From: Nanobdellota archaeon
GTDB taxonomy: Archaea; Nanobdellota; Nanobdellia; Pacearchaeales; GW2011-AR1
NCBI GenBank assembly: GCA_030704765.1
Contig: JAUYDD010000067.1
Location: 1-34,244 of the forward strand
Length of the DNA: 34,244 bases
Direction of reading: 5' to 3'
The notes below the pieces were generated by a model. The model saw only the letters and a list, made by a program, of their open reading frames with translations. It made no database searches and was not told the origin of the DNA. Positions 12,624-34,244 of this stretch are shown in pieces. The first letter of the stretch is position 1. Every line of letters starts with the position of its first letter. The translations under genes and the position numbers were made by a program.

Positions 12624-12807
12624 GAAATTGCCTAAAAATTAGCAATCCCAACCGACCCAGAGGGTCGAGGTATTTGCTAATTTTTAGGCAATTTCAGTCT
12701 CCAAGAAAAACTTTCAGAAGTTTTTCTGGGCCATTCAAAATCTTCAGATTTTGAAGGTTTCAAATCTGCCGAGGCAGAGCCTCGGGGTATTAAACCCAGA
12801 TTTGAAA
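12624..12807. repeat. Modular multi-hairpin element, copy D (just 3' of tRNA-Arg)
   Basis: Perfect 22-bp IR 12624-12645/12674-12695; aaaaactt-tcag-aagttttt; ttcaaaatct-tc-agattttgaa; tttcaaatctg..cagatttgaaa enclosing ccgaggc-aga-gcctcgg. Confidence 0.88.
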
Positions 12808-14353: not shown

Positions 14354-15349
14354 TTAAGCACCTATTTCTGATTTGTATTTATTTAGGGATATTATTAAAT
14401 CTTTCTCTAATCTTGCACCTGGACTTGCAACAACCAAAGATGCTGCATAACTAGCTAATTTTCCTGATTTTTCTAAATCCAAGTTCTTTGATAGACCGTA
14501 TAAAAAACCAGCAGCATACATATCTCCAGCACCATTAGTGTTCATTAGATTTGTCTTAAAACTAGGTATCTTATAAGTCTTGCCCTTGAATCTTATAATA
14601 CTTCCGTTTTCTCCTAATTTTACTATTGCAATTTCACATAGTTTTGATAGTTCTTTAATAGCCTCTTCAGGTGATTTTTTTGTAAATTCCTCTGCTTCTT
14701 TTTCATTAACAAATACTATATCTATTGAATCCTCTAATAATTCTCTAAAAAACTCATGATTCCTTTTTATTATTCCTGGATCAGATAAATCAATAGAAAC
14801 CTTTACATTATTTTTCTTAGCTATATCTATTGCATAAAGAGACGCTTCTTTTAAATTTAGCGCTTCAAAACTATATCCTTCTAAATGTAATATCTTAGAA
14901 TTTTTAATTACTTCCTCTATTATATCTTTTTTATTAAAATACATAGAAGCTCCTAAGTTTACTGCAAAACTTCTTTCTTTATCAGGAGTTATAAAAGTTA
15001 TAGCATGTCCTGTCATTTCATTGTTGAGATTTGAAAAAAAAGAATCTATTCCTATTTCATTTGTCAGATCCTCATATAATTTTCCATATTCATCAAAACC
15101 TATTTTTCCAAAAAACGCAGTTTTGCCACCAAGTATAGCTATTCCTGCTATAGTATTTGAACAGCTTCCTCCTGGAGATATTTTTGATTCATAAGAGCCT
15201 AGTTTCAAAAATATATCTTTACTTTTTTCCTTATCAACCAGAGTCATCTCGCCTTTTTTAAAGCCAAGTGATTCTAAGGCTTTATCTTCTATTTCAAAAG
15301 AAAAATCTAATAATGAATTGCCGAGACCAATAACATCAAATTTTTTCAT
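14354..15349 (-). CDS. PfkB-family kinase, adenosine-kinase-like
   Basis: [32 protein letters not shown]; adjacent to ahcY. Confidence 0.88.
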
Positions 15350-15428
15350 TATAGGTATTAAAAAACTAGGTTTTTAATTCTTATGCTATCAAAGTTAAAT
15401 TTAAAAACTTGTTTTATATAAAAAAATA

Positions 15429-15713
15429 ATGATAATAAAACTCCTTGGAATTATTGATGTATTCATTGCATTGACTTTTTGGATTTATGGGATATTTGAT
15501 GTAGGATTATTATCAGGCCTTATTTATGTTCTTGCAATATATTTAATAATAAAGGGTCTGATATTTCTGACTCAATTGAGTATAGCGAGTATTCTTGATA
15601 TTGCATGTGCATTGGTAATCTTATCTTCTGTAACTGTTAATATGCCTAATATTGTTGTTATAATTGTCTCTTTATTCTTGATACAAAAAGGTATTTTTAG
15701 CATGTTAGGATAA
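15429..15713 (+). CDS. Small hydrophobic membrane protein, unknown function
   Basis: 94 aa, almost entirely TM; TTTATATA upstream. Confidence 0.75.
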   Translation: MIIKLLGIIDVFIALTFWIYGIFDVGLLSGLIYVLAIYLIIKGLIFLTQLSIASILDIACALVILSSVTVNMPNIVVIIVSLFLIQKGIFSMLG

Positions 15714-15762
15714 CTGACTATAAAACCTGATGCAGTCCTTAAAGATTACAAATTCTATAAAT

Positions 15763-15855
15763 TTATGCGGGAGATAGGAAAGCTCGCAAAAGTGTTTTCT
15801 TATCGTATTTATATTTACTGAAAATCCTTTTGCTCGTTGAACCCTTCAGGCACTA
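15763..15855 (-). repeat. Duplicated tRNA-Leu(CAA) 3' fragment interrupted by a hairpin (attR-like remnant)
   Basis: ttatgcgggagatagga 15763-15779 = 15937-15953; homology resumes as ttgaaccc-ttcaggcacta at 15837-15855. Confidence 0.8.
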
Positions 15856-15939
15856 TCAAACTTATTTGAATCTGAGCGGCTAACATAGGTTCAAAGACTA
15901 TTCCAGAATAAAATCATATTTGTTTTGCAAATATGATTA

Positions 15940-16023
15940 TGCGGGAGATAGGATTTGAACCTATGAAGGCACTAAGCCAGCAGATTTTGAGTCTGCCCCT
16001 TTTGACCACTCAGGCACCCCCGC
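15940..16023 (-). tRNA. tRNA-Leu(CAA)
   Basis: GCGGGGG..GCAGA-CTCAAAA-TCTGC, long variable arm, ATAGG-TTCAAAT-CCTAT-CTCCCGC-A. Confidence 0.95.
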
Positions 16024-16045
16024 ACATAAAAAATCTAAGAAAGAG

Positions 16046-16068
16046 ACATATAAAAAGCTTTATAAACC
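16046..16068. promoter_or_regulatory. Back-to-back archaeal TATA boxes for the divergent tRNA-Leu and 5S rRNA
   Basis: atataaaaa (minus-strand TTTTTATAT) ~30 bp before tRNA-Leu; aagc-tttataaa ~29 bp before 5S. Confidence 0.6.
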
Positions 16069-16087
16069 CTTATAATCAAGGATATAT

Positions 16088-16201
<114 letters not shown>

Positions 16202-16235
16202 TTTTACTTTCTTTTTTATAAGAAAGTTGTTTAAG

Positions 16236-16436
16236 ATGATAATACCTGTAAGATGCATAAGTTGTGGAAAACCAATAGGACACCTATGGGAAGAATTCAA
16301 AGAAAGAGTTGAAAAAAATGGAGAGGATTCTAAAAAAGTTTTAGATGAATTAGGATTAGAAAGATATTGCTGCAGGTCTATATTCTTAGGGCAGGTTGAT
16401 ACATTGGAATTAATCAATAAATTCAAGAAATTCTAG
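16236..16436 (+). CDS. rpoN: RNA polymerase subunit N (Rpo10)
   Basis: MIIPVRCISCGKPIG..LDELGLERYCCR. Confidence 0.97.
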   Translation: MIIPVRCISCGKPIGHLWEEFKERVEKNGEDSKKVLDELGLERYCCRSIFLGQVDTLELINKFKKF

Positions 16437-16500
16437 ATTAATTTTATATAGTTGGAGTTTTTGAAGGGAGCATGGTCTAAGGTTAAGGTCATTGATGCTG

Positions 16501-16521
16501 AGGTCTGGGGAGCGGTTAACT
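16501..16521 (+). repeat. Cassette-boundary direct repeat, copy 1
   Basis: tctggggagcggttaact 16504-16521 is identical to 18764-18781; aggtctggggagc is shared with 19676-19688. Confidence 0.85.
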
Positions 16522-16587
16522 ATCTATTTTGGGAATCGTTTAACTAAGAGGTTAAAAAATTGCGTTTGCAAAAAGAGTTATCTTTCT

Positions 16588-16809
16588 TTATTTAAAGAGC
16601 CTTTTTAACTTATTCATAATCCATTTTTTAGTCTCTTTATTACTCTGAATAACCCAAATAATAATTGTTATAATTACTACTAAAGAAATTAATGGGAAAA
16701 GGTTTACTTCGAAAAAAGTTGTGCCTGTTACTCGAACAATTGCCCCTAAAATAGATAAAGAAATTACTAATTTTAATGTGTTTAGCAAATCTTTTTGGAT
16801 AGTTTTCAT
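16588..16809 (-). CDS. Small 2-TM membrane protein
   Basis: 73 aa, two hydrophobic helices, basic tail; starts 17 bp after the HNH gene. Confidence 0.7.
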   Translation of the reverse strand: MKTIQKDLLNTLKLVISLSILGAIVRVTGTTFFEVNLFPLISLVVIITIIIWVIQSNKETKKWIMNKLKRLFK

Positions 16810-16826
16810 TTTTTTGCGTTAATTGT

Positions 16827-18395
16827 TTAGCTTTGTCTGTTTTTTCCTTCATTTAATTCCTTTTGGATTTGCTCTGGAAAATCTGAATCCTTCCATCCTA
16901 ATTGTTCTTTGATTTGATGTATCCCTGATTCCCAGTTATAAGATTCTATTAGGTTATGATTAAATTTCCCTTTAACACTTTCTCTATTGTTTATATCATG
17001 AATTTTTTTATCCATAGGAACTAGGTTCCATATTTCATTATTATATTTATTCCTATCAATATGATGAATAGAAATATTATCTAGAATTTTCTGCCCTTTT
17101 TTCTTCAAATAATCTTCATATTTCCAAACATGGTATAATTTTCCGCTATTTTTAAACACTAAACGGCCTTCTTCGTTAAATCTGAGATTTTGCTTTTGTC
17201 CGGAATCTATTAATGCTTTTTCTTTCCAGTAAGCTTCAGTTCTTTTTTCCAATTCTTTCTCTTTTGTCTTTAATTCTTTCTCCTGTTCCAATAACTCTTT
17301 CCTTTGAATTTTTAATTTATCTTCTGTCTCTTTATTCTTATTTCTTAATCTTATTAATTCTTGTTCATATTTTTCTTTTATCTCCCCTTTAGAATGTCTT
17401 ATTTTTTCTTCTAAATCTTTAATTTCATTTAATCTATTAGCTTTTTGACTTTCTAATTTTTGAATTTCTTTATTCCCCCCTTTGATATCTTCATTTATTC
17501 TTTCTTTCTCCTCACCTAACTTTATTATCTCATTTCTTATATCCTTAACTTTTTCTTCTTCTTTCTGTCTTTCTTTTTTGACTTTACCCCTTTTCCACTT
17601 TTCAATATATAGATAACTTAGTAAGACAACAATAAAAATAATAACTCCAAAAATAGATAGTTGTTTTATTCTCTCTTCCCTCTCTTTTTGTAATTGCTCT
17701 GAACTCTTTAAACAGATTCCTTCCTCAAATCTATCTGACTTACATTCCCATTCGCACATATATGCTTCTCCAACTTCTTTAGTTGAAGGCATTAGGCATG
17801 TTTGATTCTTACAATTAAGTTTTCCATAATGTTCGCAAGAAATTATTTTATCTTTTCCACAAAAACCTACTATATTACATATTGATGAACCGCACTCATT
17901 ATCTGAAATGCATAATGAATTATCATCTAAACATTGTTTTCCATTTGGACAAGTTCTACAAACTTCTTTTTGTTTTTCTACATTTTTATACTCAGAGGAT
18001 ACTTCTGGTTCAATCAGGGTATAATCTAAATCCGTTATACCAATATAGCTATTAAGTTGTGTGTTCACATGCCCATCGTCATATCTATCAGAATCTCGAG
18101 GTTCAACTTTAACTTCAACGCTTTTTACTTCATCAAGTCCAAACCATGTCGAAACAACTTTGTAGTCTAATCTTACTGTAACGGGTATAGTCAAGTTATT
18201 ATATACAGTAAACGAAAGATGACTATTCTCTACCCAAACAAGTTTATCCATCTCCAAATTAGCTCCCACAAAATCGCCATCAAAATAAAACCACTCTTCC
18301 TCTTGAGAATAGGATTCATTAATTTTATATTGACAAGCAGAAACCGAACCTATCAAAAAGACAAACAAAAATAAAATTACAATTAAATTTTTCAT
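16827..18395 (-). CDS. Single-pass membrane protein: signal peptide, Cys-rich ectodomain, TM, coiled coil, C-terminal HNH endonuclease domain
   Basis: MKNLIVILFLFVFLIGSVSA; 14 Cys before TM LSIFGVIIFIVVLLSYLYI; K/E-rich coil; SIHHIDRNKYNNEIWNLVPMDKKIH matches the HNH_3-type pattern. Confidence 0.8.
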   Translation of the reverse strand: MKNLIVILFLFVFLIGSVSACQYKINESYSQEEEWFYFDGDFVGANLEMDKLVWVENSHLSFTVYNNLTIPVTVRLDYKVVSTWFGLDEVKSVEVKVEPRDSDRYDDGHVNTQLNSYIGITDLDYTLIEPEVSSEYKNVEKQKEVCRTCPNGKQCLDDNSLCISDNECGSSICNIVGFCGKDKIISCEHYGKLNCKNQTCLMPSTKEVGEAYMCEWECKSDRFEEGICLKSSEQLQKEREERIKQLSIFGVIIFIVVLLSYLYIEKWKRGKVKKERQKEEEKVKDIRNEIIKLGEEKERINEDIKGGNKEIQKLESQKANRLNEIKDLEEKIRHSKGEIKEKYEQELIRLRNKNKETEDKLKIQRKELLEQEKELKTKEKELEKRTEAYWKEKALIDSGQKQNLRFNEEGRLVFKNSGKLYHVWKYEDYLKKKGQKILDNISIHHIDRNKYNNEIWNLVPMDKKIHDINNRESVKGKFNHNLIESYNWESGIHQIKEQLGWKDSDFPEQIQKELNEGKNRQS

Positions 18396-18688
18396 TTCCC
18401 TTTCGCCTCTTGTTTGATTTTATTTAAAACTTCTTTTCTTGCCTCTTGTATGTCTTTAGGAATTTCTTTCCATTCAAACCTTTCTTTTACTTCATTTTCC
18501 GTAAGTTTTAGATTAATATAGTCTTTGATATAATAATCATTCATTTTATCATCAATGTTATCAATAAATTCTTGTATTGCTTGTTTTATTACAGCAGATT
18601 TATCAATTCCTTGTTCTTTCGCTATTTCAATTATCCTTTTGAGAGTTTCATTTTCAAGATAAATTCCAACTAGTTTGTTTTTTACCAT
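18392..18688 (-). CDS. Ribbon-helix-helix (CopG-like) DNA-binding protein
   Basis: KLVGIYL strand + ENETLKRIIEIAKEQG + DKSAVIKQAIQEFI; ATGA overlap with the HNH gene. Confidence 0.8.
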   Translation of the reverse strand: MVKNKLVGIYLENETLKRIIEIAKEQGIDKSAVIKQAIQEFIDNIDDKMNDYYIKDYINLKLTENEVKERFEWKEIPKDIQEARKEVLNKIKQEAKGK

Positions 18689-18754
18689 ATTAATTAATAT
18701 TAATAATTATTAGCAATTATTATATTTAAATCTTTCGGCTATTTACAAAAATAA

Positions 18755-18781
18755 AAATCCTGTTCTGGGGAGCGGTTAACT
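18755..18781 (+). repeat. Cassette-boundary direct repeat, copy 2
   Basis: aaatcctgttctggggagcggttaact. Confidence 0.85.
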
Positions 18782-18819
18782 GAGAGAAGTTTTATAATAC
18801 TCAATTTCTAAGAATCATT

Positions 18820-19671
18820 ATGAAAGCAACAGAACTTTATGCAAAATTGGAAAAGAATTTCATAAAGCCCGGCTTAAGTGATGAATGGGCTGAGCATATG
18901 GAAGAAGTAAAAGATTTTCTTAGTGATAACTTTAAAAAAAGGTCTATGGGATTAGTTTGCGATAATTCTCAACAAATTATTAGAGTTTATACTGCGGTAT
19001 TTCCAACAGACAGAGTAATGAAATATATTTTAGCTCAAAGAACAGAAGACGCTATGCTTTTTGTCCATCATCCTTCTATTTGGGATATTACTAAGGCTCC
19101 TCAAGTTTTTCAACAAATGAACCAAGATTTATTAAAAAAATTTAAAGCAAGAAAAATTTCAGTTTATAACTTACATGTTCCACTAGATAATTATGGTGAA
19201 TATTCAACTAGTCTAACTTTAGCTAATGCTTTAGAAATAAAACCAAGAAAGCCATTTGCTCCTTATTTCGGAGCTTTATGTGGAGTATTTGGAAAAACAA
19301 AATTAAGAACAACTGCAGATTTATCAAGGAAATTTAAAGAAACAGTGGGTCATAGAGTTAGTTTATATCAATATGGAAGTCCAAGTATTAAAGACGGAGT
19401 TGTCGCAGTGATAGCTGGTGGTGGAAATAATGTTGAAATGTTACAAGAAATTGCAAAAGAAGGCGTAAATACATTTGTAACTGGAATAACTGCATTAAAT
19501 TCTCATTCACAAAAAGCTCATGATTTTGCCAAAGAACATAAGATAAATGTTTTAGGTGGAACTCATTATTCTACTGAAAAATTTGCATGTATTGCTATGT
19601 GCGATTATTTCAGAAAATTAGGATTAAAAAGTCAATTCATAGATGGAAAACCTGGTTTAGAAGATTTGTAA
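18820..19671 (+). CDS. NIF3/DUF34 dinuclear metal-centre protein
   Basis: SMGLV, FVHHP, YNLHVPLD, IAGGG, TFVTG, GGTHYSTE. Confidence 0.88.
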   Translation: MKATELYAKLEKNFIKPGLSDEWAEHMEEVKDFLSDNFKKRSMGLVCDNSQQIIRVYTAVFPTDRVMKYILAQRTEDAMLFVHHPSIWDITKAPQVFQQMNQDLLKKFKARKISVYNLHVPLDNYGEYSTSLTLANALEIKPRKPFAPYFGALCGVFGKTKLRTTADLSRKFKETVGHRVSLYQYGSPSIKDGVVAVIAGGGNNVEMLQEIAKEGVNTFVTGITALNSHSQKAHDFAKEHKINVLGGTHYSTEKFACIAMCDYFRKLGLKSQFIDGKPGLEDL

Positions 19672-19688
19672 ATCCAGGTCTGGGGAGC
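19670..19688 (+). repeat. Cassette-boundary direct repeat, copy 3
   Basis: aaatccaggtctggggagc, 17/19 identical to 18755-18773; overlaps the NIF3 stop codon. Confidence 0.75.
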
Positions 19689-19858
19689 ACATCTGCCTAT
19701 TTTTGCAGAGTTTAACTTAACCTAATTTTAACCTGTAAATTTTTTATCCCTGATAAAAGTCCAAAAAATAATCTCCTGAGGTTTATGAAAGATTATCTAA
19801 CTTCTTATTATAAATAAATCACAATCAGGTTTATATAGGATGAATTTATACTTTTTTC

Positions 19859-20791
19859 ATGAGAGAAAAATTATTTGGCTGTTATGTTGCAATTGTTACT
19901 CCTTTTCAAAAACAAGGAGATAGAGTGAACCATCCTATAAATTATGATTCTTTGGATAGATTTGTTAACCATATAATTCTCGAAGGGGTTGATGGTGTTG
20001 TTGTCTCTGGTTGTACTGGTGTTGATTCTCTTCTTTCTCCAGATAAACAGGTTGAATTAGTTAAATATGTTAAAAGTAAATTTGGACACCTAACAAAAGT
20101 GATTGCTGGAGATGGAGCTAATTCAACAAGAGAAGCAATAGAACTTGCTCAAAGAATGGAAGAAGAAGCTGAAGTTTACACTCACCTCTCAATATCTCCT
20201 TATAAGAACAAGCCTTCTGATAGGGGAATAATAGAGCATTTTACAACTATTGCTGATAATATCGAAGGTAAATTGATATTATATTCTGTGCCTAGCAGAA
20301 CTGGAGGAAAAGGAATTCATCCTGATGTTGCTGAAAAATTAGCAGAGCATAAAAAGATTTATGCTATTAAAGAAGCATCTAGAGATTTGGAAAGGATAAG
20401 AGAGACTATTCATAAGACAAAGGACAAGAAATTCTCTGTTTTATCTGGTGATGATAATCTCACATATCAAATAATTGAAGCTGGTGGAACTGGAGTTATT
20501 TCTGTTGCTGGAAATATTGTTCCAAGATGGATTTCTAGTTTAACCAAGTTAGCTTTAGATAAAAGTTATGATGATGCTAGTAGTTTGCAGCTTAAATTAA
20601 ATTCTTTGTATCAAGCGCTTTTTCCAAAAGCTGTTTTAAATAAAAATCCTTCACCGAATCCAGTTATGTGTTATTATGCATTGAATAAAATGGGTTTTGA
20701 AGTTGGTATTCCAAGATTGCCTTTAACAGAAGGAGAGCCTTATGAACAAGAAAGAATGGATAAGGTATTATTAGATTTAGGACTTAGTTGA
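19859..20791 (+). CDS. DapA/DHDPS-family class I aldolase with divergent active site
   Basis: AIVTPF, GCTG, LYSVPSRTG, AIKEAS, LSGDD, GVISVAGN, PRLPL. Confidence 0.88.
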   Translation: MREKLFGCYVAIVTPFQKQGDRVNHPINYDSLDRFVNHIILEGVDGVVVSGCTGVDSLLSPDKQVELVKYVKSKFGHLTKVIAGDGANSTREAIELAQRMEEEAEVYTHLSISPYKNKPSDRGIIEHFTTIADNIEGKLILYSVPSRTGGKGIHPDVAEKLAEHKKIYAIKEASRDLERIRETIHKTKDKKFSVLSGDDNLTYQIIEAGGTGVISVAGNIVPRWISSLTKLALDKSYDDASSLQLKLNSLYQALFPKAVLNKNPSPNPVMCYYALNKMGFEVGIPRLPLTEGEPYEQERMDKVLLDLGLS

Positions 20792-20818
20792 TTTAAAAAA
20801 TAAAATTTCATTAGATAT

Positions 20819-21085
20819 TCATTCTTTTAACTTATACCTATTTCTATATCCGCATTCCTTACACTGAATGACTCTAAATCCCTTTTTTATTCTTATTTCA
20901 GAATTAACTGCATTAAAAAATGAGCAGCATTTTTTGCAGAATTTCTTTTTATAATCACCAAGTTTAATGTTTTTTGACATTGCAAGTTTTTTAATATTTT
21001 TGATTTCTTTTTCATTCGGAAAATTAGAAAAAACATCTTTGATTTTTTCCTGTATTTCTTCCCTTGAGAGATTTTGTTTTTTCAT
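20819..21085 (-). CDS. rnp4: Ribonuclease P protein Rpp21 (component 4), short form
   Basis: KKKFCKKC..EIRI..IQCKECG..RY zinc ribbon. Confidence 0.82.
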   Translation of the reverse strand: MKKQNLSREEIQEKIKDVFSNFPNEKEIKNIKKLAMSKNIKLGDYKKKFCKKCCSFFNAVNSEIRIKKGFRVIQCKECGYRNRYKLKE

Positions 21086-21201
21086 TTTAACATATTAAAA
21101 TATTTTACAGATTTGTAGATTGCACTCTAGAAGTTTATTTATTTTATTTTCTGAAATTAACATAATAATTATAGAAATCTGTGAAATATAAACATTTACA
21201 A

Positions 21202-21765
21202 TTATCTATTTTCTAATAATTTTTCCAGATAAAGTCCTGCACTTCTAACATAAAGTTCAGGATGTTTTCCAACATCATTTTTAACTAGATCTATCTCTGC
21301 AAAACAACTCCAATAAACTTTATCTGGATTTAAAGAAAAAGGGCCTTTGTAAACTCCTTGGAACATATGAACATATTCAAGGTCATTAGATCTTAGGTCT
21401 TTTGAAAAACTAGTAACAGGTGTTATAGTATTTCTTATTTCTTCTGGTAAAGATAAATTAAAAAAAATTTCTTCTGATAACTCACTTAAAGCAGCTTCTA
21501 AAGGGGTTTGCCCCCTATTTTCAGCTTTTAACCAAATTGCATGACCTTCAATACTAACATTTAATTTATTTATTCTACTAATTTTATAAGATTTCTCTGT
21601 TAATAAAATTCTACTTAAAGAAGTATCATCAAAAATAAATACACTTGAGGTAAGATGCCTAATTCCCGGAGTTTTTCCATCTCCAGGATGTGCTAATTCA
21701 TAAGAAACTGGACTTACTGCTACTCCAAATTCATTCACTTGAACTATTGGCGGGTAATTTAACAT
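21202..21765 (-). CDS. NUDIX-fold protein, IPP-isomerase-type-1-like
   Basis: RHLTSSVFIFD, GH, EAALSELSEEI Nudix box, LEYVHMF, LNPD.V. Confidence 0.7.
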   Translation of the reverse strand: MLNYPPIVQVNEFGVAVSPVSYELAHPGDGKTPGIRHLTSSVFIFDDTSLSRILLTEKSYKISRINKLNVSIEGHAIWLKAENRGQTPLEAALSELSEEIFFNLSLPEEIRNTITPVTSFSKDLRSNDLEYVHMFQGVYKGPFSLNPDKVYWSCFAEIDLVKNDVGKHPELYVRSAGLYLEKLLENR

Positions 21766-34083: not shown

Positions 34084-34244
34084 ATAGGATATCAAAAAAA
34101 TTTCCTGAAAAATCGCCTACTCCATCCTGAAGGATGGAGTTTGATCGGCGATTTTTCTGATTCGGAAATTTTTAGGATGCTCGGAAATTGAATGCAAGTA
34201 AACTACCTCATCTTAAAAGATGAGGTTTTCAATTTCCGACATAA
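34084..34244 (-). repeat. Modular multi-hairpin element, copy E
   Basis: ataggatatcaaaaaaatttcc..actccatcctgaaggatggagt..tcggaaattgaa..cctcatcttaaaagatgagg..ttcaatttccgacataa. Confidence 0.92.

Follow-up and report, generated by a model that had tools for sequence, protein, structure and literature searches.

Three GC-rich repeats between rpoN and dapA

The interval between rpoN and dapA in a Nanobdellota archaeon (Pacearchaeales; assembly GCA_030704765.1) raises the question of what three copies of a GC-rich repeat are doing among its genes. We analyzed the stretch of 34,244 nucleotides at positions 1 to 34,244 of contig JAUYDD010000067.1, referred to here as the window. It is contig C226 of the source genome, G000 (1.71 Mb, 30% GC, 88% complete). 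We consider it likely that positions 16466-19768 hold a decayed and probably immobile member of a family of Pacearchaeota cargo elements that lack a recombinase gene and were moved in trans by a tyrosine integrase, at a core formed by the 3' end of tRNA-Arg(GCG).

The repeats are real and non-random. The 18-mer TCTGGGGAGCGGTTAACT is present at 16504 (copy 1) and 18764 (copy 2), a spacing of 2260 bp. Copy 3, at 19670-19688, is identical to 18755-18773 at 17 of 19 positions and overlaps the stop codon of a NIF3 gene (open reading frame (ORF) 18820-19671). The tract 3' of copy 1 recurs 3' of copy 3. None of 100 dinucleotide shuffles of the window contained a GC-rich 10-mer three times or a repeated GC-rich 18-mer, and the 10-mer core of the repeat occurs six times in the genome, compared to 0, 1, and 0 times in three Markov simulations. 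An earlier sequence-only reading of this DNA had described the perfect repeat, the third copy at the NIF3 stop, and the common downstream tract, and had judged the repeats improbable by chance. All of these claims were borne out.

The order in the window is copy 1, a 73-aa ORF, genes for a 522-aa protein and a ribbon-helix-helix (RHH) protein, copy 2, the NIF3 gene, and copy 3. The sequence-only reading took the genes between copies 1 and 2 as a three-gene unit; the three ORFs are present, but the 73-aa ORF is weak as a gene. Searches for tRNAs and protein domains found neither a tRNA nor a recombinase between rpoN and dapA, as that reading had also stated. A search of 15000-21500 against Rfam (E ≤ 1) returned 5S rRNA, tRNA-Leu, and one chance match, and nothing else.

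The repeats belong to a family of elements with defined ends

A genome-wide scan for the repeat, proposed as a check by the sequence-only reading, found its core in ordered clusters on at least 10 contigs of G000. The clusters are built from a small set of modules, for which we coined the names T, P, B, G, R, and B'. An intact left end reads T-P-B-G1-G2-G3, with up to three G modules. It is followed by variable cargo and then by a right end that reads G-R-B'-P-T. The center of T is TCGTGGGG, P is a palindrome, R is a G-like module, and B' is an inverted B. The outermost T modules form a direct repeat. We collected 56 distinct left ends and 29 distinct right ends. There were 30 distinct complete copies in the fetched DNA, some of which may be one element in related strains, with a median length of 2.0 kb and a range of 194 bp to 10.8 kb. 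Four of the 30 were empty, 194-270 bp long and without any ORF. The tyrosine-integrase profile had no match inside any of the 26 cargo-bearing complete copies.

The family is found well beyond the source genome. Repeat scans of sequence collections detected it at 12 genome loci and 40 metagenome loci. The left-end pattern was present in 6 of 48 other genomes of the genus, with no matches to reversed-pattern controls, and the exact right-end pattern in 7 of 400 genomes of the order. A BLAST search with the joined ends matched 42 of 400 genomes of the taxonomic family, a lower bound because two candidates were scored per genome. Three end patterns had no match in viral contigs, and a viral origin was dropped.

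The family is mobile and its cargo is varied. Copies are located at tRNA-Arg(GCG), at many intergenic sites, and in tandem with one common T. Cargo includes AbiE, HEPN/nucleotidyltransferase pairs, TrmB and AsnC regulators, a P-type ATPase, radical SAM enzymes, and tRNA synthetases. The same cargo is seen at several loci with flanks that differ, as with an AbiE pair in loci L070, L073, L081, L111, and L118. The Pfam search covered 86 of 109 cargo or near-end representatives and two flanking transposases, and the check for serine and DDE recombinases covers these proteins alone; a related element, in L224, bears a resolvase-domain gene. In the complete elements in L125, L099, and L175, the sole cargo is housekeeping-type genes (class I and class II aminoacyl-tRNA synthetases and GMP synthase). 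As a separate observation, insertion sequence (IS) elements of the IS4 or IS1182 type, or their ends, lie inside the T/P core in L056, L058, L082, L090, and L012 and on G000 contigs C24, C126, C153, and C200, where they would inactivate the ends.

The site downstream of rpoN also varies among relatives, a comparison that the sequence-only reading had proposed. The first ORF after rpoN is rpp21 in 11 of 25 parsed relatives and various genes in the rest (4 of 29 loci were unparsed), and the rpoN-rpp21 interval differs between genomes. In one of the 29 loci, in genome G051, a complete element with other cargo directly follows rpoN. What looked by eye like a possible worn relic downstream of rpoN in G002 was set aside after the end models gave no match.

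Literature on DPANN archaea and Pacearchaeota yielded no description of this family, in a search that left most subscription journals and supplements outside. It is apparently an unpublished, non-autonomous, integrative family.

The window holds a worn copy of the element

Judged by sequence comparison with the family, the repeats in the window are the worn ends and an inner joint of a small cargo element without its own recombinase gene. We built end models for nhmmer without the window sequences. The left-end model, from 50 other ends, matched 16477-16545 (36.8 bits, E = 4.8e-11), and the right-end model, from 28 other ends, matched 19672-19768 (54.0 bits, E = 2.4e-16). Copy 1 appears as the G1 of the worn left end, and copy 3 as the start of the truncated right end.

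The decayed left end (16466..16545, + strand) consists of a possible remnant of the right arm of T seen by eye (16466-16475), the right half of P (16477-16486), a worn B (16489-16501), G1 (copy 1, 16504-16521), and G2 (about 16527-16545). The T core is missing, and an 11-nt deletion separates P from B. The truncated right end (19670..19768, + strand) starts with the G of copy 3 (19670-19695), followed by R (19700-19716), a worn spacer, and a B' with a 14-nt deletion; P and the T core are missing. Because the copy has neither T core, it is probably dead.

The core of the family is the 3' end of tRNA-Arg(GCG)

Several lines of sequence evidence point to the 3' end of tRNA-Arg(GCG) as the attachment (att) core of the family, a module lost from the window copy. 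The T core overlaps this 3' end in several loci, and the 8-bp center of T is that 3' end. In the fetched loci, a sample biased by having been fetched with the motifs, 10 of 12 tRNA-Arg(GCG) genes end in the T core, and P lies directly 3' of 5 of the 12, compared to 2 of 136 other tRNA ends. At the host junctions (56 left, 35 right), conservation on the host side drops off about 10 bp to the left and 12-17 bp to the right of the core, the pattern that att hybrids would give. P lies on both sides of T (P-T-P) in 27 distinct contexts, as in tandem arrays. At L098:47-121, a tRNA-Glu(CTC) has a T-like 3' end followed by the P palindrome and may be a second tRNA target.

Copy 2 joins two cargo units

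Copy 2 is an internal hybrid G site (18755..18781, + strand): its left part is of the right-end type, and its right part is joined to the NIF3 upstream region. The left context scored +3.7 bits on the right-end matrix and -20.3, -3.1, and -15.2 bits on the G1, G2, and G3 matrices. Copies 1 and 2 carry a common variant that is found in 2 of 159 G copies, these two only. A NIF3 orthologue in G003, 79% identical, is preceded by the same tract and lacks the repeat; the captured piece would therefore run from just before the tract to the stop codon. Contigs from an independent study contain a NIF3 relative whose alignment begins inside G (18769); the 309 bases upstream of that point are unrelated. 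Given the right-end left context, the rare variant, and the NIF3 comparisons, we take copy 2 as the joint of the three-gene unit and the NIF3 unit, which supports the serial capture of cassettes proposed in the sequence-only reading. Another NIF3 orthologue, in L251 (G771:C43), has a T-core right end on one side and a left end on the other, and its upstream junction is different.

The inner G sites may be more than markers. The G motif can be aligned to the right part of T, and cargo begins immediately after the TAAC of a G1, G2, G3, or R module. An AAA-ATPase cargo start follows T in L249 and G2 in four further loci, in the same register each time. Six more places (L086, L091, L095, L103, L232, and G000 contig C200) have internal G or G-R joints whose left context is of the right-end type. 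Of five complete copies first flagged for an internal G, those in L105 and L228 failed confirmation and were dropped.

It is quite possible, if short of probable, that G motifs are mere binding sites or relics, with no second tier of site-specific recombination. Internal G sites and empty elements would then arise passively, by tandem integration at T followed by G-G deletion through slippage or homologous recombination. Tandem right and left junctions with one common T are common (the 27 P-T-P contexts; L115, L086, and L247); a deletion from the first right-end G to a left-end G yields exactly a hybrid of the copy-2 type, and a passive origin needs no new chemistry. However, the rare variant of copies 1 and 2 would then have to be coincidental or stem from a later conversion, and the flush cargo starts and the in-register exchange of T and G2 would go unexplained. 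The same structure would result whether a G-joined circle was inserted or a tandem pair collapsed. The variant common to copies 1 and 2 favors direct exchange between G sites, without proving an enzyme.

A candidate tyrosine integrase

We lean toward a tyrosine integrase, IntA, as the enzyme that moves the family. In G767, the gene for IntA (440 aa, PF00589) stands directly behind a left end of the form T-P-...-G-P and closes a tandem row that includes two integrase-less units. Over 155 nt, this left end and an integrase-less end on G000 contig C45 are 95% identical. In G785, a gene for a 96% identical IntA lies directly behind tRNA-Arg(GCG) and the same left end with P deleted. A partial IntA, 97% identical, is at the start of contig C223 of G000; its catalytic motifs are kept, and the small downstream ORF is also there. 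Copies of IntA that are 96-97% identical were found in 3 of 271 genomes, from three genera, and all three, one of which is G000, have element ends. Such near identity across three genera suggests recent transfer. About 28 further proteins of the IntA clade show 45-87% identity. IntA aligned with 9 viral loci at only 26-35% identity. Further integrases of element-bearing genomes adjoin tRNA-Ser, tRNA-Gln, or tRNA-Glu. The sequence-only reading had proposed a recombinase acting in trans, and this is supported in that a candidate exists.

Several observations weigh against a single integrase acting at the tRNA core, in addition to the sampling bias in the tRNA counts noted above. A close IntA was found in none of 15 other element-bearing genomes, with a best match of 44% in G047 that is not beside a T core; these are incomplete metagenome-assembled genomes, though the gap is large. 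The left end expected at the G000 gene is hidden because the gene is cut by the contig edge, and the right end of an IntA-bearing element was not seen in the fetched loci. A second integrase family lies behind the same core in G160 and G775, without P, B, or G modules. Away from tRNA genes, the core is present at both ends of the element, and a single crossover into native host DNA is insufficient for this; such sites would first have been seeded with a copy of the core. Searches with the flanks gave no clean filled and empty pair among the matches listed. The circle junction that the sequence-only reading had suggested looking for was absent from the contigs of four sequencing runs, one of them probably the source. 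Nor did an excision circle turn up: the one contig joint to skip 16540-19693 is backed on its short side by only 23 letters, and another copy of the family could be its source.

The second family encodes tyrosine-recombinase-like proteins of 380-410 aa in 63 of 270 genomes of the taxonomic family, mostly beside tRNA genes (L224:16249-17481; loci L273-L302). The query protein had no Pfam match at E ≤ 0.001.

We think it unlikely, though worth weighing, that the catalyst is instead a host XerA-type recombinase or this divergent tRNA-integrase family, acting on a dif-like 11-7-11 core or on the P palindromes. PF00589 genes are near-universal (47 of 49 genomes of the genus), two G000 proteins score above the XerA_Arch cut-off, and IntA is rare; the divergent family is widespread and twice lies behind this core. 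In contrast to IntA, which has the modules in two genomes, none of the XerA-size genes in the fetched loci lies with end modules. Members of the divergent family mostly flank other tRNAs, and none was detected in G000 at E ≤ 1e-40.

Transposon, tRNA-Tyr, and integron readings

A transposon origin is improbable. The ends would be repeats like miniature inverted-repeat transposable elements (MITEs) or repetitive extragenic palindromes, with cargo moved as a composite transposon by nearby IS4 or IS1182 transposases. Genes or ends of these types do abut the T/P region in several loci, but they interrupt the core instead of bounding the element. At the outer edges of the element stand direct rather than inverted repeats, equal to the tRNA 3' end. 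These termini are fixed, and they lack the terminal inverted repeats and variable target duplication of a MITE or a composite DDE transposon.

Even less probable is the proposal of the sequence-only reading that the G repeat itself is an att core from tRNA-Tyr. Copy 3 can be read as a T-stem and acceptor strand, and G resembles a tRNA end because it resembles the T core. However, the tRNA-Tyr(GTA) of the genome has a different 3' end, and the comparison with it gave no match. Against 148 tRNA 3' ends in the fetched DNA, the proposed 17-mer matched at most 12 of 17 positions, with neither of the two tRNA-Tyr genes among the best. The tRNA-Tyr core is refuted for G000, barring an unassembled second tRNA-Tyr with that end.

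The chance is slighter still that the repeats are attC sites of an integron cassette array without an integrase (a cluster of attC sites lacking integron-integrase, CALIN): the motifs contain RYYYAAC-like words and archaeal CALINs are described in the accessible part of PMC9668308, but no repeat copy folds better than shuffles on either strand (z -0.43 to +1.37), the four recombinases of G000 (88% complete) score 209, 196, 32, and 31 bits against a TIGR02249 cut-off of 265 for the integron integrase IntI, and cargo lies in both orientations with its own upstream tract kept. A structured RNA was rejected along with the attC hairpin, on the same folding result and the lack of a relevant Rfam match.

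Genes in and around the window copy

Cargo unit 1 holds three ORFs on the - strand. The 73-aa hydrophobic ORF (16588..16809) is weakly supported as a gene because it has one relative besides itself. The 522-aa protein (16827..18395) has a weak HNH_3 match at residues 434-466 and 19 relatives, 9 of which have PF13392. Judged from its sequence, it likely has a signal peptide, a Cys-rich region, a membrane segment, a coiled coil, and a C-terminal HNH motif, and it is predicted to be membrane-anchored. The profile search gave no family match and Atlas no usable match for this protein, and PADLOC gave only a weak coiled-coil match to the window cargo. The gene for the RHH protein (18392..18688, PF01402, E = 4e-6) overlaps its start. 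Cargo unit 2 (18787..19671, + strand) consists of an AT-rich promoter-like tract and the NIF3/DUF34 gene (PF01784).

On the left, the conserved host anchor is rpoN (16236..16436, + strand, PF01194), which encodes RNA polymerase subunit N and is present in 46 of 48 other genomes of the genus. A 5S rRNA gene at 16088-16202 lies between tRNA-Leu(CAA) and rpoN. On the right, outside the element, dapA (19859..20791, + strand, above the TIGR00674 cut-off) is an accessory gene at the rpoN hotspot, with only distant matches in 2 of 40 relatives. It is followed by an rpp21-like gene (20819..21085, - strand, weak Rpr2 match), the usual neighbor downstream of rpoN. Elsewhere in the window there is a second, unrelated intergenic repeat family, at 2283-2364 and 34111-34192 (82 nt, 96% identical) and also at 2224-2266 and 12702-12744.

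A possible mechanism and comparison with known systems

Movement of the family could be pictured as follows. The right and left ends, once joined, would form an attP site, which IntA would recombine with the end of tRNA-Arg(GCG) or with copies of T left elsewhere. The small protein encoded downstream of IntA (62 aa in G767) may be a directionality factor. The G motifs would be degenerate copies of the T core that serve as a second tier of joints, and cargo units would be added, swapped, or dropped between G sites, copy 2 being one such joint. In the window copy, both T cores and the greater part of P and B' would have disappeared later.

The attP of phage lambda consists of a core and arm-type sites. 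The joined site of the family is similar: it is about 290 bp long and has several direct and inverted motifs on either side of a central core. It differs in that the direct repeats resemble the core itself and border cargo.

There are also parallels with the cis-mobilizable elements (CIMEs) and their tandem accretion at tRNA 3' ends in Streptococcus, as far as the accessible part of PMC5704250 describes them. Like CIMEs, the window element and the cargo-bearing complete copies showed no integrase or transfer gene, in searches not aimed at transfer genes; members of the family also form tandem arrays with one core and, in G767, have an integrase-bearing relative in the same array. Unlike CIMEs as described there, the family is archaeal, has many small copies (0.2-11 kb) per genome that are mostly away from tRNA genes, has ends that are about 90% alike across about 30 genera, and has inner G joints. 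Both attL and attR are kept in intact members, whereas the window copy has neither T core. As to decay from an integrase-bearing element, one left end is common with the IntA elements, but the left end of the main subfamily differs. No conjugative partner turned up beside the elements, although transfer genes were not searched for.

Archaeal elements with type II (pNOB8/lambda-paradigm) tyrosine integrases are reviewed in PMC8371274; the word DPANN does not occur in the accessible part of that review. IntA resembles the integrases outlined there in being an intact PF00589 protein encoded just inside the left end at a tRNA 3' end, with a short att core. The family's core comes from a tRNA 3' region, and is lost in the window copy. 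An intact integrase is inside the members in G767 and G785 only; the window element and the 26 cargo-bearing complete copies differ from type II elements in having no tyrosine integrase.

Likeness to integrons and CALINs, judged from the accessible part of PMC9668308, lies in accessory units of one to a few genes that are flush with repeated sites, in cargo rich in toxin-antitoxin genes, and in an enzyme that would act in trans. The family differs from them in having no attC hairpin or IntI, in its mixed gene orientation, and in its asymmetric left and right ends. By analogy, the family would work like CIMEs with tandem accretion, driven by a type II archaeal integrase, and not like an integron array.

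Implications

Published work says little about how DPANN archaea, with their reduced genomes, acquire accessory genes. Because the ends and the tRNA target of the family are defined and a candidate enzyme can be named, gene flux in this uncultured lineage can be mapped from sequence and is testable. The window copy is a worn example, and its main addition is the hybrid joint. More tentatively, and with considerable doubt, Pacearchaeota may have a two-tier, integron-like shuffling system in which one tRNA integrase moves whole mini-elements via the tRNA-Arg(GCG) core and also recombines degenerate inner copies of that core. Such a system might capture, stack, and swap host genes with their promoters and spread toxin-antitoxin pairs, transporters, and aminoacyl-tRNA synthetases across about 30 genera. 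If it is true that the inner G sites are substrates, then this would be a cassette-capture system that arose independently of integrons.

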